The notes beneath the pieces were generated by a model, which saw only the letters and a program-made list of their open reading frames with translations, was not told the DNA's origin and searched no databases. Positions 14,730 through 50,331 of a stretch of 64,000 bases of DNA are shown piece by piece (the first letter of the stretch is position 1; each line of letters begins with the position of its first letter). Where the stretch lies: the NCBI GenBank assembly GCA_949294555.1, contig CASFHP010000010.1, positions 34,191 to 98,190 of the forward strand. Reading direction: 5' to 3'. The stretch comes from an uncultured Eubacteriales bacterium. GTDB taxonomy: Bacteria > Bacillota > Clostridia > TANB77 > CAG-508. The translations under genes were made by a program, and so were the position numbers.

Positions 14730-16250
14730 TCACTCAATAAATTGTGGTTTATGATTTTCTATTGTCCATTTTTTCCACCCAGAGGTTAATGTGCTGTTAT
14801 TCGTTATATATGTATTCAATTCATTAATTGTCTCATCTGTTAGCTCTTCTAACATTGTGGCATTTACTGTTATATTTTTCCCTGCGCTCTGTTGTACAAT
14901 ATTGCTTTTTAGAAAGTAGCAATTTTCAAATTTATTTGCTGAAACATTGTTCCACATTGCTGCCCCTACAATTCCTCCAATAGTTGATCCTGTTATATTT
15001 CCTGCACTATATACATTTATGCATCCTGCATGGTCATATACATATCCAATGATTCCTCCAACCGTAGCACCATTTATGTTTCCTAAATTATAACAATTAT
15101 ATATAAAAGGTGTAGCAGCTGCCGTTCTAGTTCCTCCTAAAATTCCTCCTGCCCAAATATCTCCCATAATTTTGGTTTCTTCGGAATTATAACAATTAAC
15201 AATTGTTAAACGTCCAGTACCCATGATTCCACAAATTCCTCCTGCCCATGATTTATCTCCTTCACTTATGATATTTGCTTTGTTATAGCAATTACTTATT
15301 GTTATTTCATTATATCCATTAGCAAAAATCCCACCACATTCTTCTGTTCCCATTACATTCCCACTAATGCCTAAATTTTGTATAATTCCATTATCTATTG
15401 TCTGAAATAATCCTGCTCTTCCTGTCTTATTTATATATATATTCTGTATCTCATTTGATTGTCCATCAAATGTACCTGAAAAATTCATGATTGGTGTAAA
15501 ACCACTTCCAGTAGTATTGGTTAGTAAATCTCGTAATTCTTCTATTGAATTACAATTCAAAATCTTTCCATTTGCATAAGATAATCTAGACTCAAAATTT
15601 AAAGTTCTTCCCAATTTTATATAAGCATCTTGATAAGCCTCATAATTTTGAGACCATTCTACCAAATCCTCTATACACCATATTTCATAAGGCTTTCCTC
15701 CCTCTTCTGTTTCTGCTTTTCCGTTTAATTCTTCTCCATCTATTCCAACGGTTATATCTCCTGGATATTTATCCTTTATAATTGGATACTCTCCTTCAAT
15801 ATTTCCATCTTTATCCACTATATAATATCGATCACTATCAATAAATATAACTTCAAAGTCATCTCCTACATCATTTACGTCTGTCTTTCCTTCTCCTGTT
15901 TCTTTATCTAGTTGCTCTTGTAGTTTATCCTCTTCGATATTTCCATATTTATTCTTTCCCATTGCTTGCACAATTGCTTCTTCCAAAACATCTTTCTCAT
16001 TGGCTATTTCTGCTTCTTCTTTAGCGCTTCCAGCATTTCCAATAATTCCATTATCTCCTGTTATAGCATTTATTGTAATTCCTGCTAAGATAAGTAAAAT
16101 AATAATTGTTATTACTAAGACTAATAAGGTAATTCCTGTTTGGTTTTGTATGTTAGTTTTAATTTGTGTTTTACAAAATTTGTTCTTAAAATTTGCTTTC
16201 ATTTTCTCTATTTCTCCTATGACTTTTGTTTTTTCTTCTTCTCTTCTCAT
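14730..16250 (-). CDS. Surface protein with a pilin-like hydrophobic N-terminus and C-terminal GLUG-like repeats (paralogue 1)
   Basis: 506 aa. N-terminal segment TGITLLVLVITIIILLILAGITINAITGDNGII. The C-terminal half is built of GG[IL]xG ... I.NCYN repeats (AGGICGIMG, AGGILGG, VGGIIGYVY, IGGIVGAAM). SD is aagagg. Confidence 0.65.
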   Translation of the reverse strand: MRREEEKTKVIGEIEKMKANFKNKFCKTQIKTNIQNQTGITLLVLVITIIILLILAGITINAITGDNGIIGNAGSAKEEAEIANEKDVLEEAIVQAMGKNKYGNIEEDKLQEQLDKETGEGKTDVNDVGDDFEVIFIDSDRYYIVDKDGNIEGEYPIIKDKYPGDITVGIDGEELNGKAETEEGGKPYEIWCIEDLVEWSQNYEAYQDAYIKLGRTLNFESRLSYANGKILNCNSIEELRDLLTNTTGSGFTPIMNFSGTFDGQSNEIQNIYINKTGRAGLFQTIDNGIIQNLGISGNVMGTEECGGIFANGYNEITISNCYNKANIISEGDKSWAGGICGIMGTGRLTIVNCYNSEETKIMGDIWAGGILGGTRTAAATPFIYNCYNLGNINGATVGGIIGYVYDHAGCINVYSAGNITGSTIGGIVGAAMWNNVSANKFENCYFLKSNIVQQSAGKNITVNATMLEELTDETINELNTYITNNSTLTSGWKKWTIENHKPQFIE

Positions 16251-33692: not shown

Positions 33693-34136
33693 TTATTTAT
33701 GTTGCTTTAACATCCATATAATTTTACTATATTCTAAGATATATTCATCAATTAAACTAGATGTTGCATAAATATGATTTTCATCAGCTAATTTTTTTAT
33801 TGTCATTGCCTTTTGCAATAAGTTTTCAAAATCTTTTAGTATTTTATCTAATACAATTTCTCCTTCAATTTTTGCATTTTTTGCTTCTTCAATACATGTT
33901 TTCTCTAGATAATCTTTCATTGTACCTAGAGGTTGTTTATCCAAAGTCAATATATGTTCTGCAATTTCATCAATTTCTTCATTGATTTTGTCATAATATT
34001 CTTCTAATTTTTCATGCAAAACAAAAAAGTTTTTTCCTTTCACATTCCAATGATAATTTTGTAATTTTCTATAAAATACATTCAAATCCGCAAGAAATTC
34101 ATTTAATGTATTTACCATTTCTTCCATTTTCTTCAC
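33693..34136 (-). CDS. dps: Dps-family DNA-protection/ferritin-like protein
   Basis: 147 aa. Motif YRKLQNYHWNVKGKNFFVLHEKLEEYY. Confidence 0.85.
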   Translation of the reverse strand: MKKMEEMVNTLNEFLADLNVFYRKLQNYHWNVKGKNFFVLHEKLEEYYDKINEEIDEIAEHILTLDKQPLGTMKDYLEKTCIEEAKNAKIEGEIVLDKILKDFENLLQKAMTIKKLADENHIYATSSLIDEYILEYSKIIWMLKQHK

Positions 34137-34326
34137 TCCAATCTTTTATTTTATATATAAATTTTTTCCCTTTTTTTATTTTTTTATTCACTTAAAATTT
34201 ATATTTATATTTTTCATTTATTTGTACATAATAATATAAGAAAAACATTAAAAAATAAAAATTCTCTATCCTTTATAAAATTAATTGTTTTTCATAATAA
34301 AATTTATCATATCAAGGAGGTTAAAA

Positions 34327-34755
34327 ATGAATCGACCAGAATATATTTTAAATGAAATAAATAAAGGAATTAAGATGGGAATGGATTCTATTTCTTCTAT
34401 TGCTGAGAAAGTAACTGATGACCAATTAAAAGATGATTTACAATCTGAATATAATCAATATAATGAAATTTTAAATGATGTAAATGCCGAACTTGGTAAA
34501 TATGAAGAATTTCCAAAAGAATTAAATCCTGCACAAAAAATGATGGGATGGTTTGATATTCAAATGAGTACATTAACAGACAATTCCGATTCTAAAATTG
34601 CTGAAATGCTAATTAAAGGTACCAATATGGGAATTATTGAGGGTGTGAAATTATTGAATAATAATCCTGAAACAACTAAAGAGATAAAAAATATTTTAAC
34701 AAATTTTATCCAATTTCAAGAAAATAATGTGGAGAGATTAAAAAAATATTTATAA
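34327..34755 (+). CDS. Hypothetical helical-bundle protein
   Basis: Start at the ATG at 34327 after an aaggagg SD (the track start at 34285 is less likely). 142 aa, no firm motif. Confidence 0.5.
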   Translation: MNRPEYILNEINKGIKMGMDSISSIAEKVTDDQLKDDLQSEYNQYNEILNDVNAELGKYEEFPKELNPAQKMMGWFDIQMSTLTDNSDSKIAEMLIKGTNMGIIEGVKLLNNNPETTKEIKNILTNFIQFQENNVERLKKYL

Positions 34756-34796
34756 TGTCCAATTGGGGACGTTTCTTTTTGAGACATCCCCAATTG
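34756..34796 (-). repeat. GGGGAC-core repeat, family B copy 3 (inverted) forming a hairpin between convergent genes
   Basis: tgtccaattggggacgtttctttttgagacat is the reverse complement of the family B unit with 1-2 changes. caattgggga (34760-34769) pairs with tccccaattg (34787-34796). It starts one base after the stop at 34753-34755. Confidence 0.85.
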
Positions 34797-34804
34797 AACA
34801 GAAT

Positions 34805-36325
34805 TTATTTCAAAATTTCTTTTATAACTTTCCAAATTCTATCAATAGAGCAAATAGATACTCTTTCTTTTGGAGAGTGAACATCGTAACTATTCGGTCC
34901 TATACATACATATTCGCAATCTGGCATTTTATCAGCAAAAAATCCGCCCTCTACAACACCTTGTGAGACAATTTCTTCCATCTTTTTATTAAATACCTGT
35001 AAATATGCTTTTTGACATTTTTCTAATAGTTTGTTATTTTCCTTTTTTTCTACACCTTTTAGTTCTTGATGCCATGTTATGTTTATGCCATATTTTGTTA
35101 TCAATTGTTGTAATTCTTGCAAATATTCTTTTTCTAATTCTTTTTTATTGCTTCTTTCTGAAAATTCGATTTGCATTCCATTTTTACATTCTGTTAAAAC
35201 TGCTAAGTTTGCAGATAATATGACATTTTGATTTTCTTCTCTTTTTAATGCTCCATTTTTATATTCATTTACAAAATCGATGATTTCTCTACTCTTGTTT
35301 TTAGAATATGCTTTTATTATTTCTTGATTTTGTTTATTTTCTTCTAATTTTTCTAGTACTATCGTTTCATTTTGAAATTTTTCTTTTTGCTTTTGGATTT
35401 TTGCTTGTATTTTTTGAATTACTTCTTCTGAATTTGCCTCAATATTTTTAATTTTATTTTCTCCTTCTAGTTCACCGTTACTAATTACTTTATTTGTCTT
35501 ATCCTCTTTATCTAAAACACAAAATTCTATCATAAATTCTCTTGGTATTACATTTACTCTGCTACCACCTTTTAATTTTATAATTTGAACATTGCTAGTA
35601 TTTTCTAATGCTTCCATTGCTAATTTTATTGGATTGCCTCTTTTTTCATCTCCAATATTTCCACCAGAATGTCCTCCTAAAAAGTTTTCATAGCTTAATC
35701 TATAGATTTCATTTTTTTCATTAACCATTTCTTTTTCAGCTTCCATTATCCCTACCCATTCATTGCAATTGGCCGAACTAATTAAAATCTTTCCTTCTTT
35801 TCCATTATCTAATGAAATAATTTTTCTTGCTCGAATATTTTTGGCATCTATTTTTATTGCACCAATCATGGTTGTTTCTTCTTGTACTGTAAAAATACAT
35901 TCTAGGTTTGGAATGGAGATATCACTATCTAATATAGCCAGCATGTAGGCAACACCAATACCATTGTCTGCTCCTAAGGTTGTTCCTTTTGCTGTTATAT
36001 AGTCTCCTTCTTTGTATAAATTAATAGGGTCTTTTGAAAAGTCATGTTGAATTCCGATATCTTTTTCACATATCATATCTGTATGTGCTTGAAAAGCTAA
36101 GCTTTCTTCTGTTTCTCTTCCTTTGCTTGCTTTTTTATAAATAATGATATTTTCATATTCATCTTTTACATATTCTAAATTTCTATTCTTAGCAAATTTT
36201 TCAAGATATTCTCTAATTTGTTTTTCTTCTCCAGACCTTCTTGGAATTTTACTAATTTCCGCAAAATAGTCAATGACTTTTTTGGCTTCTAAATTTTGAT
36301 AGTCTTCTAATTTTAATAATTCCAT
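34805..36325 (-). CDS. pepD: Aminoacyl-histidine (Xaa-His) dipeptidase, M20C family
   Basis: 506 aa. N-terminal FAEISKIPRRSGEE and metal-ligand segments AHTDMICEKD and GADNGIGVAY. Confidence 0.8.
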   Translation of the reverse strand: MELLKLEDYQNLEAKKVIDYFAEISKIPRRSGEEKQIREYLEKFAKNRNLEYVKDEYENIIIYKKASKGRETEESLAFQAHTDMICEKDIGIQHDFSKDPINLYKEGDYITAKGTTLGADNGIGVAYMLAILDSDISIPNLECIFTVQEETTMIGAIKIDAKNIRARKIISLDNGKEGKILISSANCNEWVGIMEAEKEMVNEKNEIYRLSYENFLGGHSGGNIGDEKRGNPIKLAMEALENTSNVQIIKLKGGSRVNVIPREFMIEFCVLDKEDKTNKVISNGELEGENKIKNIEANSEEVIQKIQAKIQKQKEKFQNETIVLEKLEENKQNQEIIKAYSKNKSREIIDFVNEYKNGALKREENQNVILSANLAVLTECKNGMQIEFSERSNKKELEKEYLQELQQLITKYGINITWHQELKGVEKKENNKLLEKCQKAYLQVFNKKMEEIVSQGVVEGGFFADKMPDCEYVCIGPNSYDVHSPKERVSICSIDRIWKVIKEILK

Positions 36326-36400
36326 ACGCTTTTTTCTCCTTACATCATATTCAACTTTTTAAAAATTTTTTGCCTACAACCTTTTAATACTATTGTTTAT

Positions 36401-37171
36401 TTATGTCCTTTCTAAGTATCTACTTAAAAATTGTTTTGTTCTTTCTTCTTTTGGCTCTTCGATGACTTCTTTAGGGGTTCCCATTTCCACAATAGAACCA
36501 TTATCCATAAAGATAATTCTATCAGCCACTTGTTTTGCAAATTGAATTTCGTGTGTAACAATTACCATTGTCTTTTTTTCTTCTGCTAGTTTTTTGATAA
36601 CCTTTAACACCTCTCCTATCAATTCAGGGTCTAGGGCACTTGTTGGTTCATCCATAAATAGGATTTCTGGTTCAATTGCCAAAGCCCTAGCAATCGATAC
36701 TCTTTGCTGTTGACCACCTGATAAATTACATGGATATACATCTTTTTTATCTTTGATTCCCATTTTGTCTAATAATCGTAAAGCCTTTTCTTCTGCCTCT
36801 TTTTTATCCATCTTTAACACGACTATCATTGCTTCTGTCACATTTTCTAATATTGATTTATGTGGGAATAAATTAAAATTTTGAAATACCATTCCACATT
36901 TTAAATTCATCTTTTTTAGGATTTCTTTAGAATTATAGACTGGCTTTCCATTTTTATATTCTTTTACCATTTTGTCTTCATCAATTTTTATATTTCCGCC
37001 ATCAATCTTCTCTAATTGATTCATACAACGTAAAACAGTTGATTTTCCTGAACCAGATGAACCGATAATGGCTAAAACTTCTCCCTCATTTACTGTAAAC
37101 GAAACCCCTTTTACAGCTACATTATCTTTATACTTTTTTACCAAATTTTCTACTTTTACAATTTCTTTCAT
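36401..37171 (-). CDS. Polar amino acid ABC transporter, ATP-binding protein
   Basis: Motifs GSSGSGKST, LSGGQQQRVSIARAL, LFMDEPTSALD. Confidence 0.92.
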   Translation of the reverse strand: MKEIVKVENLVKKYKDNVAVKGVSFTVNEGEVLAIIGSSGSGKSTVLRCMNQLEKIDGGNIKIDEDKMVKEYKNGKPVYNSKEILKKMNLKCGMVFQNFNLFPHKSILENVTEAMIVVLKMDKKEAEEKALRLLDKMGIKDKKDVYPCNLSGGQQQRVSIARALAIEPEILFMDEPTSALDPELIGEVLKVIKKLAEEKKTMVIVTHEIQFAKQVADRIIFMDNGSIVEMGTPKEVIEEPKEERTKQFLSRYLERT

Positions 37172-37189
37172 CTTTATCTCATTCCTTTC

Positions 37190-37846
37190 TTATGTGATTG
37201 TATAATAATCCAACTTCTTCTCTGCCCTGTTAAATACAAAAGATATGATTGCACACAAGCATAGATAAATAACACCTGCTACACAAAGTGGAACAATTGA
37301 AAATTGATAACTTGCTTGTTTTTGTGCCAACGCAAAAATCTCTGTAATCCCTATAATTTGTGCCAATGATGTTGTCTTAATTAGTGATATTACCTCATTT
37401 GATAGTGCTGGTAAAATTCGTTTGATAATTTGTGGTAATGATATTTTAAAAAATGTTTGCGTTTTTGTCATTCCCAATGTAAATGCTGCTTCCTTTTGTC
37501 CTTTTGGCACACTTAACATTCCACTTCTAAAGATTTCTGCAAAATATGCTGCATAGTTGATAACAAAAGCAATAATCACTGCTACAAATCTATCATATGA
37601 AATATTAAACAAATAATATGGTGCAAAATATACAAAGATAATTTGTAACATCATTGGTGTCCCTCTAATGATAAGAATATATATTTTCATTATCCATGCA
37701 ATGATTTTACATTTTGCATTTTTGGCAATTGCCACTAGAATTCCCGCTGGAATTCCAATGACCAATGTTAATATAAAAATTGATAATGTTGTTCCTAATC
37801 CTTCTAATAAAATTTTTGTTAAATTCATTATATTTGACATATCCAT
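37190..37846 (-). CDS. Polar amino acid ABC transporter, permease (HisM/GlnP type)
   Basis: 218 aa with 5 TM helices. EAA-like loop GQKEAAFTLGMTKTQTFFKISLPQ. Confidence 0.9.
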   Translation of the reverse strand: MDMSNIMNLTKILLEGLGTTLSIFILTLVIGIPAGILVAIAKNAKCKIIAWIMKIYILIIRGTPMMLQIIFVYFAPYYLFNISYDRFVAVIIAFVINYAAYFAEIFRSGMLSVPKGQKEAAFTLGMTKTQTFFKISLPQIIKRILPALSNEVISLIKTTSLAQIIGITEIFALAQKQASYQFSIVPLCVAGVIYLCLCAIISFVFNRAEKKLDYYTIT

Positions 37847-37919
37847 GTTTCATTTCTCCTATTTCTGTATTTTCTTAAATTCCTATTCAGTCGAAAATCT
37901 GCTTTTATCTTGCCCTATT

Positions 37920-38720
37920 TTATAAAAGAACTTCTTTTCCAGCTTCTCCAAACCATTTTTCTGCTATTTCGTCTACCTTTCCTTCTGCTTTTAATTCTGC
38001 AATAGCATTTTCTACTTTATCTTTTAATTCTGTATTTCCCTTTTTAAAAGCAATTACCATTCCTTTTGATTCTTCTCCTATTCCTTCTGCATCAAATGTT
38101 CTAAAATCTTTATTTTGTGAATTCATAACATAGTTTCCTGTAATTCTACTCATATATACAGCATCTACATTTCCTGTTTCTAAATCCATTAAAGCTGTTA
38201 AATAATCGGTATACCCTATTATTTCATCTATTTCTTGCCCAAATTCATCATCATTTAATCTTCTCTCTTGTACTGAACCACTTTGTACACCAATTTTTTT
38301 ACCTTTTAAATCTTCTTGTGAAGTATATTCAGAATCACTTCTTACAAAAAAGATAGATGCATCTTTTATATATGGTTCACTTAATGTCATTGCTTCATTT
38401 CTTTCCTCTGTATAACCAAATCCATTCCATATACAATCAATATTTCCAGAATCTAATTCTTGCTCTTTTGCTGCCCATGAAATGGTTTGTACCTTTAATT
38501 CCATTCCTAATTTGTTACATACTTCTCTAGCTAAGTCGACATCAAAGCCAACTAATTCGTTATTTTCATTTCTAAAACCCATTGGTGGGAAACTATCATC
38601 CATTCCTAAAACAAATGTATTTTCATTATTTTCTTCTCCTTGTACACTAAAAATAATTACCCCTATTACTGCAATTATCACAATTGCTGCTATCAGTCCT
38701 ATTAAAATTTTACTTTTCAT
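37920..38720 (-). CDS. Polar amino acid ABC transporter, substrate-binding protein (family 3), membrane-anchored
   Basis: 266 aa with an N-terminal TM helix. Motifs GFDVDLAREV and the G(V)QSGS segment. Confidence 0.88.
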   Translation of the reverse strand: MKSKILIGLIAAIVIIAVIGVIIFSVQGEENNENTFVLGMDDSFPPMGFRNENNELVGFDVDLAREVCNKLGMELKVQTISWAAKEQELDSGNIDCIWNGFGYTEERNEAMTLSEPYIKDASIFFVRSDSEYTSQEDLKGKKIGVQSGSVQERRLNDDEFGQEIDEIIGYTDYLTALMDLETGNVDAVYMSRITGNYVMNSQNKDFRTFDAEGIGEESKGMVIAFKKGNTELKDKVENAIAELKAEGKVDEIAEKWFGEAGKEVLL

Positions 38721-38820
38721 TTTTAAATTCCTCCTTAAATTTTCTTTTATTTTTGTTTTTAAGAGATTTGCTTGTTATATATCCTAAAATTTGGCGCCTT
38801 TTTTTGGATATACATATTCA

Positions 38821-38862
38821 ACAAAAAGACCTTAAAAGTACTTTTTTGTACCTTTAAGGTCT
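38821..38862 (-). terminator. Leader terminator (attenuator) upstream of the amino-acid importer operon
   Basis: Minus-sense GACCUUAAAGGUAC-AAAAAA-GUACUUUUAAGGUC followed by UUUUUGUU. Confidence 0.7.
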
Positions 38863-38878
38863 CTGTAAGAAAACTAAA

Positions 38879-38924
38879 GGCACAAGCATCTAAAGCTTGT
38901 GCCAATCAATTTCAGACACAAGCT
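38879..38924 (-). promoter_or_regulatory. Mutually exclusive hairpin segments of the leader
   Basis: In RNA sense, AGCUUGUG (38924-38917, overlapping the leader stop codon), CACAAGC (38901-38895) and GCUUGUG (38887-38881). The middle segment can pair with either neighbour. GCCUUUAG just 3' of the third segment can pair with the 5' arm of the terminator. Confidence 0.55.
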
Positions 38925-38973
38925 ATTTTTTATGATGATGGTTGTTACCTTTTATTGTATTTATATTTCTCAT
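38923..38973 (-). CDS. 16-codon leader peptide MRNINTIKGNNHHHKK with three consecutive His codons
   Basis: aagggagag SD 6 nt upstream of the ATG. Sequence atg aga aat ata aat aca ata aaa ggt aac aac cat cat cat aaa aaa tag. Too short for the ORF track. Confidence 0.55.
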   Translation of the reverse strand: MRNINTIKGNNHHHKK

Positions 38974-39004
38974 AAAATTCTCTCCCTTAAACTTATTGAT
39001 TAAA

Positions 39005-39034
39005 ATTCTATCATGCTTATTTAAGATTTGTCAA
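39005..39034 (-). promoter_or_regulatory. Promoter of the leader and amino-acid importer operon
   Basis: On the minus strand: TTGACA (39029-39034), 18-nt spacer ending in TGa, TAGAAT (39005-39010). Confidence 0.6.
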
Positions 39035-39142
39035 TACTTTTTCTAAAATTTTTTATTTTTATGTTAAGTGTTGGTTACTGCCACCCCTCTGTACATAAAG
39101 TGGAAAGCATTATTACTATTCTATGTGTTTTATCTAAAAAAG

Positions 39143-39682
39143 TTACTCTTCATGGACATCTAGCAAAGAAAATACATCTGTTGCGTCATTCAATTCTTTT
39201 ATATTCATAATGACCCCTTGTCCTAGAACAATTCCGCCAGCTTCTTCTATTGCACTTTTTATCGCCTTCATCGTATTTCCTGTTGCATAGATATCATCTA
39301 AAATATAAATTCTTTTTCCCGCATAGCTTTCATTAACTAACTTTGGTAATTCTAGCTCATCTTTTCCATATTCTTTTTCATATTCAAATTGTTTCTCCAC
39401 TGTAATTGGTGGCAATTTTCCTGCTTTTCTAACAGGAATAAAGCCTATATTTAGTTTACTAGCAACTGCCGCTCCTACAATCAGTCCCCTTGCTTCTGGT
39501 CCAACAATATAGTCTATTTCCTTTTTTGCTAATTCTTCTACAAACTTGTCCACAATTTCTTTAAATGTTTCCTTTTGGATGATTAAAGGCATAATATCAA
39601 TAAATTCAATGCCTTCTTTTGGAAAATCTTTTTGTGTTCTGATATGTAATTCATTTTTTAATTCATTTCTTATTATTTTCAT
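39143..39682 (-). CDS. apt: Adenine phosphoribosyltransferase
   Basis: 179 aa. PRPP-binding motif RIYILDDIYATGNT and segment GPEARGL. Confidence 0.88.
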   Translation of the reverse strand: MKIIRNELKNELHIRTQKDFPKEGIEFIDIMPLIIQKETFKEIVDKFVEELAKKEIDYIVGPEARGLIVGAAVASKLNIGFIPVRKAGKLPPITVEKQFEYEKEYGKDELELPKLVNESYAGKRIYILDDIYATGNTMKAIKSAIEEAGGIVLGQGVIMNIKELNDATDVFSLLDVHEE

Positions 39683-39734
39683 ATTTTATATCATTCCTTT
39701 CTCAAGGTCTAAATCTGATTGAAAAAAATATCAC

Positions 39735-40802
39735 TTATTTTACAAATCCACTTTGTACAATCTGACGATTTGGTTGTTGCTCACCCTTTTCCAACACATT
39801 TTTAATTCTATCAATTGATTCTTCAAATTGACTTAGTGCATTTACTTGCACCTGTTGATATATTGGTTTTTGATAATATTCTCTATCCATAATCTCTGTC
39901 TTTATTCTCTCTGTATCTTTTCGATAATATTCTATTTGCTTTCTTTTAAATAACTTCTTTTCTCCCTTGACTGCTGGAAGATTGCCAGTTGGTTTCATTT
40001 GTGCTTGCTCAGCTAAGATTTGTTCATCTGGCAAATTGTTAAAATTTCGTCTAAGAGCAAATATCATTTCCTTCATTTCTGGGGAAAATTCTCCATTCAA
40101 ATCTTGTGCACAACAATCATATAAATTTGCCATCATAACCTCAATTGTATTTTCAGGATTTCTCACGTCTGCTTGTTTTCTTTCCCATTGCATTTTTATC
40201 TCGATGTTCCTTATTTTTTCCCCTTTTAATGACGTTCCGTATAAAAACTTTTGGAACTTAGAATCTTTTTCTTGTAAGGCTTGTTCTTTCTCTTTTTGTA
40301 ACTGTTGTAATTTTGTACCTGTAATCATGTTTTGCACTTTTTGGTTAACATTTGCTGTTATTTCTTGAAACGATTGGGCGTCATGCTCTCTTATATATTT
40401 TGGTATTTCCTTCATGATTTGCTGTATGCCAATCAATTGTTGCTTTTCTTGTAATAATTGTTGGTATTGCTTTTCTAACTCTTCTTTACTTGGTTCATTT
40501 TCGTCTTTTTCTTCTGTTTCATTTGCTTTTTGCTTTTTTATAGCGTCTTCCTCTAATTTTCTTTTGATTTTTTGTATATTTTCTAAATTTTTAAAATGTG
40601 GATACTTTGAATAATATACCCCTAAATCATCTGCCATCGCTTGGTATCTTGTCGCATTTGCTTCTATTTGTCTCATGTATTGTTCCAATGTTTCTGTGAT
40701 ATCTGTTTTAGCATATTCCATTTCATTTTCTAAACTTCTAATTTCTGTTTCTAATTGTTTTCTTTCCTCTTCTGTTAATTCTAAATTATATGATTTTCTC
40801 AT
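39735..40802 (-). CDS. Hypothetical coiled-coil protein
   Basis: 355 aa, Glu/Lys/Gln-rich. Its start codon directly abuts the murI stop (TAA at 40803-40805, ATG at 40800-40802). Confidence 0.5.
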   Translation of the reverse strand: MRKSYNLELTEEERKQLETEIRSLENEMEYAKTDITETLEQYMRQIEANATRYQAMADDLGVYYSKYPHFKNLENIQKIKRKLEEDAIKKQKANETEEKDENEPSKEELEKQYQQLLQEKQQLIGIQQIMKEIPKYIREHDAQSFQEITANVNQKVQNMITGTKLQQLQKEKEQALQEKDSKFQKFLYGTSLKGEKIRNIEIKMQWERKQADVRNPENTIEVMMANLYDCCAQDLNGEFSPEMKEMIFALRRNFNNLPDEQILAEQAQMKPTGNLPAVKGEKKLFKRKQIEYYRKDTERIKTEIMDREYYQKPIYQQVQVNALSQFEESIDRIKNVLEKGEQQPNRQIVQSGFVK

Positions 40803-41561
40803 TTACTTCTCCTTGATTAATTCAAAAAATCTATTTTTCTTTTGTTCACTGTTTGATGAGTCTATAAATTGTATGGTCGTATCTTGTTTTTCGTTGTTTA
40901 TCAAATCTTTTTCTTGTAAAACTTCTTTCAAATGATTAGCTAAATATGGTGCTCCATTAAAAAATTGAACATCGCCTAAAACTTCTTTAATTTCTTCTAT
41001 AATGAGAGGATAATGCGTACAACCTAAAACCACATTTTTTACTTTCCCTGTATACAGTTCTAAATGATGTTTTACATATTGCTTTATCTTTTCTTTGTTT
41101 CCCTCTTCTATGACATCTGCTAGTCCAACACATGGAAGCAATATGGTTTTATGGTTATCATAGGTGTGGTATAAAAGATTAAATTTTTCACTTTCAATCG
41201 TTCCTTTAGTCGCCAGTACCAAAGTTGATTCATTATATGCATAATCATATACCATTTTATATGCTGGTTCTATGGCGATAAATGGTATATGATAATATCG
41301 CTTTCTTAAATATTGCACAGCTTTTGCACTTGCTGTATTACAAGCAATTACAATGGCTTTGCAATTTTCTTTTATAAAAAATTCCACTATATTTTCACAT
41401 AATGCAACAATTTCTTGGTCTGTTTTATCTCCATATGGATTATTTTTAGAATCACTATAATATATGTATGTTTCATTTGGCAATATTTTTATGATTTCTT
41501 TTAAGACTGTAGCGCCTCCAATTCCAGAATCAAATATGCCAATTGGTCCGTTTTTGTTCAT
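40803..41561 (-). CDS. murI: Glutamate racemase
   Basis: Motifs IGIFDSGIGG, IACNTASA, LGCTHYP. Confidence 0.95.
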   Translation of the reverse strand: MNKNGPIGIFDSGIGGATVLKEIIKILPNETYIYYSDSKNNPYGDKTDQEIVALCENIVEFFIKENCKAIVIACNTASAKAVQYLRKRYYHIPFIAIEPAYKMVYDYAYNESTLVLATKGTIESEKFNLLYHTYDNHKTILLPCVGLADVIEEGNKEKIKQYVKHHLELYTGKVKNVVLGCTHYPLIIEEIKEVLGDVQFFNGAPYLANHLKEVLQEKDLINNEKQDTTIQFIDSSNSEQKKNRFFELIKEK

Positions 41562-41645
41562 TTTTTGTTCCTCTTGCTTTCATGATTTGTTATTATCCTT
41601 ATTTTTTTCTAACCTCATAACTTTCCTTTTTATTTTTTTCGTCAT

Positions 41646-41691
41646 AATTCGACATTTTTGAATCAAAATGCAACCTGGCCCGAATTGTCTC
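41646..41691 (-). repeat. GGGGAC-core repeat, family C degenerate copy overlapping the stop of 41690-42310
   Basis: aattcgacatttttgaatcaaaatgcaacctggcccgaattgtctc. It aligns with 7446-7490. Confidence 0.7.
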
Positions 41692-42310
41692 ATCTTATAT
41701 AATTTGTTTTGATTGGTTGTTCTTTTTCTGGTATGCTAATTCCTGCTTTTTTTCCTTGCTCGATACATTTTAGTAGCCATGCCATGTTGTTTCCTAATGT
41801 TCTCATAGTTTGCAAACCTTCTTCATCTTGCATAACTTCTTCTGGTGTATTTCCATGTACCATATTCCAATATTGTGATGATACAATTGGCATGTTATTG
41901 ATTGTGAAATATTTATTTAATTGATCAAATGTTGATGTTGCTCCACCTCTTCTACAACTAACTACACAAGCTCCTAATTTATTTTGAAATACTGCTTTTC
42001 CTGCATAAAAAACTCTATCCATAAATGAGGTAATTGCTCCTGTTGCTGAAGCAAAATGTACTGGTGTTCCAAATACAAATCCATCTGCTTCTTTTGCTTT
42101 TTCGATAAATTCGTTCACTTTATCATCTATAAAACATTTTCCTGTCGACTTACAACTACCACATGCAATACAACCTGATATTGGTTTTACACCTAACCAA
42201 ATGATTTCTGTTTCGATGTCATTTTTATTTAATTGTTTTTCTACTTCTTTTAATGCCGTATATGTACAACCTTCTTTATGTGGCCCTCCATTGACTAATA
42301 ATACTTTCAT
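41690..42310 (-). CDS. Flavodoxin-fold NAD(P)H-dependent FMN reductase / iron-sulfur flavoprotein-like
   Basis: MKVLLVNGGPHKEGCT start with an aaaggaaag SD, and a Cys cluster CIACGSCKSTGKC. Confidence 0.7.
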   Translation of the reverse strand: MKVLLVNGGPHKEGCTYTALKEVEKQLNKNDIETEIIWLGVKPISGCIACGSCKSTGKCFIDDKVNEFIEKAKEADGFVFGTPVHFASATGAITSFMDRVFYAGKAVFQNKLGACVVSCRRGGATSTFDQLNKYFTINNMPIVSSQYWNMVHGNTPEEVMQDEEGLQTMRTLGNNMAWLLKCIEQGKKAGISIPEKEQPIKTNYIR

Positions 42311-50171: not shown

Positions 50172-50246
50172 TGGCTGGGCTGGCTAGATTCGAACTAGCG
50201 CATGCCAGAGTCAAAGTCTGGTGCCTTACCGCTTGGCTACAGCCCA
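50172..50246 (-). tRNA. tRNA-Gln: tRNA-Gln (UUG), CCA encoded
   Basis: Reverse complement TGGGCTGTAGCCAAGCGGTAAGGCACCAGACTTTGACTCTGGCATGCGCTAGTTCGAATCTAGCCAGCCCAGCCA. Folded by hand into a cloverleaf with anticodon loop CU-UUG-AC. Confidence 0.93.
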
Positions 50247-50253
50247 ATATATA

Positions 50254-50331
50254 TGGGGTGGAAGATGGGACTCGAACCCACGGTCTCCAGTGCCACAAAC
50301 TGGCGCGTTAACCAACTACGCTACATCCACC
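50254..50331 (-). tRNA. tRNA-His: tRNA-His (GUG) with G-1:C73, CCA encoded
   Basis: Reverse complement GGTGGATGTAGCGTAGTTGGTTAACGCGCCAGTTTGTGGCACTGGAGACCGTGGGTTCGAGTCCCATCTTCCACCCCA. Anticodon loop UU-GUG-GC, with one U-U mismatch in the acceptor stem. Confidence 0.9.

Follow-up and report, generated by a model that had tools for sequence, protein, structure and literature searches.

We describe here an RNA element on the minus strand of a 64,000-nucleotide (nt) stretch of DNA from an uncultured Eubacteriales bacterium (assembly GCA_949294555.1, contig CASFHP010000010.1, positions 34,191 to 98,190), which is called the window in the following. The element stands ahead of an operon encoding a polar-amino-acid ATP-binding cassette (ABC) importer and a PepD-type dipeptidase, and most probably (we put it at roughly 85%) it is a ribosome-mediated leader-peptide attenuator that senses charged tRNA-His and controls this operon. 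Histidine attenuation by the ribosome had been proposed in a preliminary description of the window, and it is now supported by several observations: the short histidine-rich open reading frame (ORF) was found beside the RNA core even when the search patterns were free of His codons, its His run keeps a distance of 5-8 nt from the first pairing segment, and sister leaders were found before hisS and other his genes. What was observed directly are the elements in the sequence, how far they are conserved and able to pair, and the genes with which they are associated. Positions given below are those of the window, and the features of the leader and of its operon are on the minus strand.

Elements of the leader

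The leader region is flanked by apt (39143-39682) and the first transporter gene, and a sigma-70-type promoter (39005-39034) sits between apt and the leader. This promoter consists of TTGACA (39034-39029), an 18-nt spacer and TAGAAT (39010-39005); the TG at 39013-39012 makes it an extended -10 promoter (TG-n-TAGAAT), and with a match of 11/12 it was the top-scoring minus-strand promoter in the region 34000-40000. Direct reading of the sequence gave the Shine-Dalgarno (SD) element AAGGGAGAG (38980-38988), the leader ORF of 16 codons plus stop (MRNINTIKGNNHHHKK, 38923-38973, with ATG at 38973-38971 and TAG at 38925-38923), and within the ORF the regulatory His codons CAT CAT CAT (38932-38940). 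The stop codon overlaps segment 1. The elements listed in the preliminary description could all be recognized in the minus-strand sequence.

Segment 1 (DNA AGCTTGTGTC, RNA AGCUUGUGUC, 38915-38924) is able to pair with segment 2 (DNA GGCACAAGCT, RNA GGCACAAGCU, 38894-38903), which has segment 3 (DNA GCTTGTGCC, RNA GCUUGUGCC, 38879-38887) as its other possible partner. Segment 3 continues in the extension TTTAG (UUUAG, 38878-38874). Alternative-pairing folds placed the loop GAUG between segments 2 and 3, segment 3 itself, the extension and a U-rich spacer in one hub strand (38867-38890). Its alternative partners are segment 2 (helix 2:3), the 5' arm of the terminator (the antiterminator, in which GUGCCUUUAG, 38883-38874, takes part) and the leader ORF (a long-range helix that we call P0). 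According to the model, helix 1:2 would be the one that frees segment 3.

An intrinsic terminator (38823-38861; 14-base-pair stem, 6-nt loop, U5 at 38827-38823, -18.7 kcal/mol) separates the leader ORF from the first structural gene. The stem and the U5 tract had been predicted correctly, and the limits of 38821-38862 given earlier had to be corrected by 1-2 nt. The arms of the terminator are GACCTTAAAGGTAC (5', 38861-38848) and GTACTTTTAAGGTC (3', 38841-38828), and the upper part of the 5' arm, UUAAAGGUAC (38857-38848), doubles as the 3' strand of the antiterminator. The 196-nt leader folds with -54.8 kcal/mol, compared with -32.4 +/- 3.9 kcal/mol for dinucleotide shuffles (z = -5.7; 0/200 were equal or better).

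Conservation of the leader family

In a seed search via the binding protein, in which the loci whose contigs reach far enough upstream were considered, all relatives of the binding protein down to about 50% identity were preceded, 170-400 nt upstream, by an ORF of 12-17 codons containing HH or HHH; the more distant homologues, from Spirochaetes and Oscillospiraceae, had no such ORF. As a guard against circularity, patterns describing segments 1-3 only, free of His codons, were searched in one genome per species, and a relaxed pattern was then applied to metagenomes, where it gave many more matches. All of the approximately 62 matches in metagenome-assembled genomes (MAGs) of Clostridia found in the one-genome-per-species search had a His ORF directly upstream and the binding-protein gene downstream. 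The remaining matches, in Blastocatellia and other GC-rich genomes, were rejected as unrelated repeats or coding sequence. Among these was a GC-rich palindromic repeat resembling GGCACAAGCTGGACAGCTTGTGCC, present on at least seven contigs of one Blastocatellia MAG (L091, L098, L105, L109, L123, L124, L129). Both strands of this repeat were hit by the segment pattern; it resembles a dispersed repeat family and has no connection with the attenuator.

The searches gave 154 AT-rich instances in total, corresponding to 89 unique leaders and 61 distinct peptides. Every complete AT-rich instance carries an SD-led ORF of 12-19 codons, the frame of which is preserved across indels, and HH or HHH is found in 59 of the 61 distinct peptides, the other two having HYH and HQH; orthologous leaders lacking the ORF or the His run had been named earlier as possible counter-evidence. 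Runs of any other residue occur in at most 19 peptides each. The end of the His run is 5-8 nt from segment 1 in the unique leaders, and the regulatory His codons are CAT in 238 cases and CAC in 9. The SD core stands 5-13 nt ahead of the ATG in 88 of the 89 unique leaders. A TTGACA/TAnnnT promoter precedes 79 of 86 unique leaders, 65 of them with an extended TG, and the median distance from the end of the -10 element to the ATG is 31 nt. Judged from this conservation of sequence in 89 unique homologous leaders, the leader is not a product of chance.

In 27 representatives of the sequence type to which the leader of the window belongs (type A, see below), helices 1:2, 2:3, the antiterminator and the terminator were 91-100% paired, which supports the pairing potential proposed for the 1:2 and 2:3 alternatives. 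For segment 1 the figure was 100% of cells, with a nearly invariant sequence. Compensatory changes were found in five pairs of the terminator (28 cells; 0/500 shuffles reached as high a value). The entropy of segments 1-3 is 0-0.10 bits (0.00 for segment 3) and that of the loops 0.8-1.3 bits, and the upper 5' arm of the terminator has 0.27 bits versus 0.63 bits in its 3' partner. This conservation profile fits a multi-partner constraint.

Two complete leaders stand in tandem before one transporter operon at several loci (L020, 2450-2782; L025, 2459-2777; L086, L104, L120, L137 and L140). Both copies are complete, with an SD, an HHH ORF, segments 1-3 and a terminator each, and no promoter is visible for the second one, which in L137 has HYH (CAT TAT CAT). 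The HQH peptide (CAT CAA CAT) belongs to L180, a type B leader (see below) before hisS, where the degenerate run lies in an otherwise intact leader.

Three leader types and a histidine regulon

The leaders fall into three types, whose peptides end in GNKHHHKK (type A, including the window), in IFLNQLHHHRRSL (type B, where segment 1 contains the stop codon), and in FRNEHHKN (type C). The sequences of the antiterminator and of the terminator differ among the types and the wiring is unchanged: the antiterminator is formed by GUGCCUUUAG:UUAAAGGUAC in type A, by CCUACGAUAGU:ACUAUUUGUAGG in type B and by UGCCUAAG:CUUAuGGUA in type C. In helix 1:2 of type B a G-to-A change in segment 1 is matched by a C-to-U change in segment 2, and this U pairs with G or A of segment 3. 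Common to the type B leaders are the core AGCUUGUA...UAGGUACARGCU and the HHH ORF.

The transporter operon was the only target found for types A and C. The genes under type B leaders include hisS, a hisS-racemase-like fusion, hisZ-hisG and hisG-hisIE, and furthermore a His-racemase-like gene with an M20 ArgE/DapE-like deacylase gene, a GNAT acetyltransferase gene with an M20 gene of the same kind, and the binding protein-permease-ATPase-pepD operon. When the first downstream gene was assigned by BLASTP against the proteins annotated at type B loci, in one genome per species, it was racemase-like in 20 cases, GNAT in 19, hisS in 18, the transporter binding protein in 7 and pepD in 1; several MAGs have two type B-led operons. 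Since sister leaders precede hisS and hisG, encoding histidyl-tRNA synthetase and ATP phosphoribosyltransferase, the leader can be regarded as a histidine sensor, and the leader family marks a histidine regulon.

The order binding protein-permease-ATPase-pepD is syntenic in types A and B and pepD is absent in type C, as seen past the ATPase gene at L032, L034, L081, L084, L088 and others. Racemase-like/M20 and GNAT/M20 pairs (L238, L248, L208, L150, L201, L210 and L267-L345) are candidates for histidine salvage routes. The racemase-like product is a DapF/CntK-like protein with weak NCBIfam matches to "histidine racemase", far under the cut-off. At L193 (695 amino acids) and L170 (cut at the contig end) the first ORF past the leader is a hisS with a C-terminal histidine-racemase-like domain.

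Folding of the leader and ribosome masks

The median energies of the type A elements were -19.9 kcal/mol for the terminator, -12.2 for the antiterminator, -15.0 for helix 1:2 and -16.8 for helix 2:3, and in the RNAalifold consensus the full leader at equilibrium contains helix 2:3 and the terminator. Equilibrium folding of full leaders with ribosome masks was dropped as uninformative for a kinetic switch, and truncated transcripts were used instead. These ended at the terminator loop, before the 3' arm, and the ribosome was represented by an unpaired block from -15 to +12 relative to the A site.

With the first His codon in the A site, the probability of the antiterminator exceeded 0.5 in 96% of type A, 100% of type B and 83% of type C leaders. 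With the second His codon the proportions were 84%, 90% and 8%, and with the stop codon 9%, 14% and 0%, respectively. For the leader of the window the probabilities were 0.81 (His1), 0.79 (His2), 0.01 (His3) and 0.04 (stop). The assignment of the stalled ribosome to the ON state and of the ribosome at the stop codon to the OFF state, as suggested previously, is thus reproduced in silico. With the downstream limit of the footprint set at +9 or +15 the ON/OFF boundary moved by one codon and stayed within the His run. The antiterminator was also more stable than pairings to shuffled terminator arms, with a median z of -2.8 for type A and -2.9 for type B, and p = 0.005 for the window.

The minimum-energy fold of the untranslated transcript before emergence of the terminator revealed helix P0. 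Its 5' strand is discontinuous (38937-38984) and consists of GAGAGAAUU (38984-38976), AAAGGUA (38952-38946), CAA (38944-38942) and CAUC (38940-38937). P0 pairs the ORF, including the His codons, with the 2-3 loop, segment 3 and the extension, and hairpin 1:2 is nested inside it. The probability of P0 was above 0.5 in 89% of the leaders of type A and in 92% of those of type C (0.57 in the window), and the minimum-energy folds of type B have the same architecture. The codons that are conserved outside the His run have partners in P0: AAA GGU AAC (AAAGGUAAC) pairs with GCCUUU, CAUCAUCAU with AUGAUGAUG in one subtype, and AUAUUUUUAAAC with GUUUAAAAAUAU in type B, and in the L006 subtype P0 contains a perfect 14-mer complement. 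These codons would be conserved because of the P0 pairing.

Proposed mechanism

Transcription would start about 30 nt upstream of the 16-codon ORF, and three states of the nascent transcript can be proposed. When no ribosome is present, P0 would form around helix 1:2, the 5' arm of the terminator would stay free and the terminator would fold, so that the operon is OFF; P0 would cause termination without translation because it keeps segment 3 off the terminator arm. If the ribosome is held with the first or the second CAU in its A site, the 5' strand of P0 would be occupied and segment 1 free, and helix 1:2 would hold segment 2. In this state GUGCCUUUAG could pair with UUAAAGGUAC ahead of the synthesis of the 3' arm, leading to read-through (ON). 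With ample His-tRNA the ribosome would reach the stop codon overlapping segment 1, segment 2 would be released and helix 2:3 would form; the antiterminator would then be blocked and the terminator would fold (OFF). We infer the stalling of the ribosome, the kinetic competition between the helices and a response to histidine in vivo. The core helices of this scheme are those of the earlier wiring proposal, in which helix P0 had been missed and the need for kinetic control was not recognized. Specificity could arise, by analogy with classical attenuators, from a run of one rare codon at the last permissive positions.

Several findings weigh against this mechanism. Full-length leaders of types A and B fold the terminator at equilibrium under every ribosome mask, therefore the switch must be kinetic, i.e. 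co-transcriptional, and the model would depend on co-transcriptional kinetics and on the coupling of ribosome and RNA polymerase. Transcription-translation coupling is weak at least in B. subtilis, and it is debated in Gram-positive bacteria generally. The untranslated default of the leader in the window is ambiguous, since the probability of the antiterminator is 0.69 once the 5' arm of the terminator is present. A ribosome that stalls in the model before it reaches the His run also yields the ON state; it is thus the codon run and the regulon, and not the structure, on which the specificity for histidine depends. In type C there are two His codons only, and the antiterminator is weak (median -5.7 kcal/mol, z -1.9). 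An alignment of homologous leaders, which had been suggested as a check, confirmed the His run and gave the compensatory changes of the terminator; within type A there were none in helices 1:2 and 2:3 and in the antiterminator, because segments 1-3 are invariant there. Covariation in these three helices was seen only between the types, by eye and in per-sequence folds. The carriers are all uncultured MAGs or metagenome contigs. Finally, the sequence alone, as judged by NCBIfam and the neighbours in the Protein Data Bank (PDB), cannot assign the binding protein to histidine.

Alternative explanations

The same sensor could act through a simpler wiring, in which helix 2:3 followed by UUUAGUUUUC is the regulated terminator, helix 1:2 is its antiterminator and the large downstream hairpin is a back-up. 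The terminator scan indeed scored the 2:3 hairpin (38879-38903) with the UUUAGUUUUC tail (38869-38878) as terminator-like, and a U-rich stretch follows segment 3 in most type A leaders. This arrangement is nevertheless unlikely: there is no U tract directly past 2:3 in type B (CCUACGAUAG...) or in type C (CCUAAGAU or CCGAAAAGG), an unregulated downstream 14-base-pair terminator with U5-8 would block expression, and the 5' arm of that terminator complements the extension of segment 3 far better than shuffled arms do and varies less than the 3' arm. Both wirings could act together in type A, where the 2:3 hairpin with its U-rich tail might be an additional, earlier and weaker termination point with the same logic.

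A trans-acting factor, either an RNA-binding protein or tRNA-His acting in a T-box-like manner, might instead read the core of segments 1-3 and set the choice between 1:2 and 2:3, with the ORF being secondary. Segment 2 contains CAC, a His codon, and segments 1 and 3 contain the matching GUG; moreover, segments 1-3 are invariant across operons with binding proteins of 56-84% identity, which exceeds the conservation usually caused by pairing alone. The invariance is explained as well by the two or three alternative partners of each segment, and the SD-led ORF, its frame and the distance between the His run and segment 1, all conserved in three types, are not needed if only a factor is at work. 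No match to the Rfam families His_leader (RF00514) and T-box (RF00230), or to any other family, was obtained in the region 34000-42000 even at E <= 10, and no specifier-loop or T-box-bulge features were seen. At the Rfam gathering thresholds the whole 64-kb window gave no T-box or riboswitch, the only matches being two adjacent tRNA genes (50175-50330, minus strand). HutP sites have a regular 4-nt spacing of UAG repeats, and a HutP-like site was considered a poor fit: three UAGs are present in the leader, but they are approximately 30 and 14 nt apart. We consider a factor-only sensor very unlikely. The chance is similarly slim for a hybrid sensor, in which the segment 1-3 core of a translated attenuator would also be contacted by tRNA-His or a dedicated RNA-binding protein, giving a second, translation-independent histidine signal, and in which the hairpin at 38812-38778 would be a further control point.

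Still less probable is an arrest of the nascent peptide in the style of TnaC or Erm, triggered not by uncharged tRNA-His but by free histidine or some other small molecule. Parts of the peptide are conserved within the types (KGNKHHHKK; IFLNQLHHHRRSL), which speaks for it, but the conserved non-His codons coincide with the pairing partners in P0 (AAAGGUAAC:GCCUUU; AUAUUUUUAAAC:GUUUAAAAAUAU) and the residues flanking the His run are wholly different between the types. The sign would also be wrong, as abundant histidine would turn on uptake genes and hisS. The absence of any regulation, with a chance short ORF beside ordinary hairpins or an upstream apt terminator, has a practically negligible probability: short ORFs are plentiful in AT-rich genomes and Lys and Asn codons are common there, but apt and the leader are separated by a strong promoter, the ORF, the His run, the helices and the terminator are kept in 89 unique leaders from many MAGs, always before the transporter operon or other His genes, and the fold z-score is -5.7.

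Comparison with known attenuators

The attenuator proposed here resembles predicted systems of other Firmicutes. For Bacilli, Naville and Gautheret (2010, PMC2965389) predicted histidine leader peptides before hisZ and before a hisS paralogue, and Ashniev et al. (2022, PMC9413887) predicted them before the his operons of the B. cereus group, Peptostreptococcaceae, Lutispora and Erysipelotrichales. The preliminary description had called such attenuation unusual in Firmicutes, and in the light of these two reports this was overstated. The published predictions and the leader of the window have in common an SD-led ORF, consecutive His codons (three to five in the published cases), an "attenuator" hairpin, an antiterminator and an intrinsic terminator, in Gram-positive hosts with no His T-box at the gene concerned. 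The published targets are histidine biosynthesis or hisS-like genes of cultured species, whereas in the window an ABC importer and pepD of an uncultured gut Clostridia member are concerned; type B leaders, standing before hisS, hisZ-hisG and hisG-hisIE, are like the published ones in this respect.

The leaders of Lutispora and Terrisporobacter (PMC9413887, Additional file 6) are similar in layout, with HHH, a few further codons and a stop inside a UUGUA segment. They contain cauagGUACAa and then a downstream cuaugaug able to pair with the His codons, and the layout resembles type B. The local alignment of Lutispora with type B scored 34, compared with a shuffled mean maximum of 22.8 (standard deviation 2.5, top 30), and the scores of the T. 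glycolicus and A. sticklandii leaders were within the shuffled range; the published sequences used in these alignments were taken from a PDF, so that errors in them are possible. These sequence comparisons give no more than a weak hint of homology, for Lutispora.

In the enterobacterial type of leader represented by hisL (RF00514), stalling at consecutive His codons likewise selects between helices, and termination occurs both with full translation and with none. The strand of hisL containing the His codons pairs downstream as helix A:B, to which P0 would correspond here. The present element differs from hisL in having 2-3 His codons versus seven, another set of helices, and uptake and peptidase genes as target versus biosynthesis. 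With trpL it shares the two or three regulatory codons near the stop, a stop codon adjoining the segment whose masking decides the outcome, and a terminator more stable than the antiterminator, so that control is kinetic. Compared with trpL there is an extra layer, as the ribosome would mask segment 1 of a relay from 1:2 through 2:3 and the pairing of segment 3 with the 5' arm of the terminator to the terminator itself. Arrival at the stop codon would thus act via two successive strand exchanges, and a separate long-range helix, P0, would provide the default without translation.

The histidine transporters hisXYZ of Firmicutes have been assigned to T-box or HisR control (PMC9413887). The His T-boxes of hisS and hisXYZ described in that report occupy the same slot as the element of the window, respond to the charging of tRNA-His and have a terminator/antiterminator output; the T-box binds the uncharged tRNA directly, without translation, whereas the present element would rely on a leader ORF. 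In a limited search of the literature no report of this leader family, or of a His leader peptide over a transporter-pepD operon, was found.

The mechanism is classical and not surprising, and its use lies in the annotation of gut Clostridia. The leaders form an RNA family without an Rfam entry, widespread among uncultured gut Clostridia in human, chicken, rabbit, mouse and ruminant samples, and in these lineages a leader peptide would fill the slot of the His T-boxes or the HisR repressor of other Firmicutes. It gives a histidine-responsive label to otherwise generic genes, namely the polar-amino-acid ABC importer, pepD and the racemase-like/GNAT plus M20 pairs. The layered relay (P0, 1:2, 2:3, antiterminator and terminator), together with the natural tandem duplications, would make the element a compact model system in which kinetic attenuation of Gram-positive bacteria could be studied.

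The operon and its surroundings

The first regulated gene (37920-38720) encodes a substrate-binding lipoprotein of the SBP_bac_3 polar amino acid family. It is followed by an ABC permease of the HEQRo 3-TM (three-transmembrane) family (37190-37846) and an ABC ATPase of the polar amino acid type (36401-37171), all three being assigned by Pfam and NCBIfam. The last gene (34805-36325) encodes a PepD-type aminoacyl-histidine dipeptidase of the M20 family, which matched TIGR01893, "beta-Ala-His dipeptidase", with 358.9 bits versus a cut-off of 343.75. The terminator scan found no terminator in the 75-nt gap between the ATPase gene and pepD. Just past the pepD stop lies a GC-rich hairpin (34760-34796), flagged on the plus strand in the terminator scan, which is the probable end of the operon.

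The gene content and the lack of a terminator before pepD agree with what had been described before, and the binding protein is, by its sequence, a generic polar-amino-acid binder. It scored far under every NCBIfam equivalog cut-off (HisJ, ArtJ, GlnH, cystine), and its nearest solved structures among the PDB sequence neighbours are binders of Gln, Arg and polar amino acids in general. As a clue to the substrate, a His T-box was sought before the genes of 20 more remote homologues of the binding protein, and none was present. From the context we infer that the transporter takes up histidine.

Between the terminator and the SD of the binding-protein gene there is an AT-rich inverted repeat (38778-38812) with the centre GGCGCC (38798-38793). 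Within 120 nt past the terminator, 44 of 55 leaders of type A and 10 of 11 of type C have a GC-rich 6-nt palindrome, compared with an expectation of about 0.04-0.13; it is absent in type B. In the relatives (L001-L034 and others) the centres are GCGCGC, TCGCGA, TGCGCA, GTCGAC or TGGCCA, and the arms covary. The repeat might function as an operator or, in RNA, as a hairpin whose tip is self-complementary, and it may lie outside the attenuator proper.

A second ORF of 506 amino acids (14730-16250) was considered as a pepD paralogue and rejected on search; no leader was visible upstream of it. Upstream of apt, an ORF of 355 amino acids (39735-40802, minus strand) has no Pfam or NCBIfam match, and in several related MAGs proteins of 52-58% identity are likewise encoded next to apt. 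The source of the window is a very close relative of the uncultured Clostridia MAG BRZ_BI__bin48, as judged from the locus L131 of that MAG (CALWZZ010000022.1): it has an identical leader peptide, and its apt, binding protein, permease, ATPase, pepD and ferritin-like gene products are 94-99% identical to those of the window.

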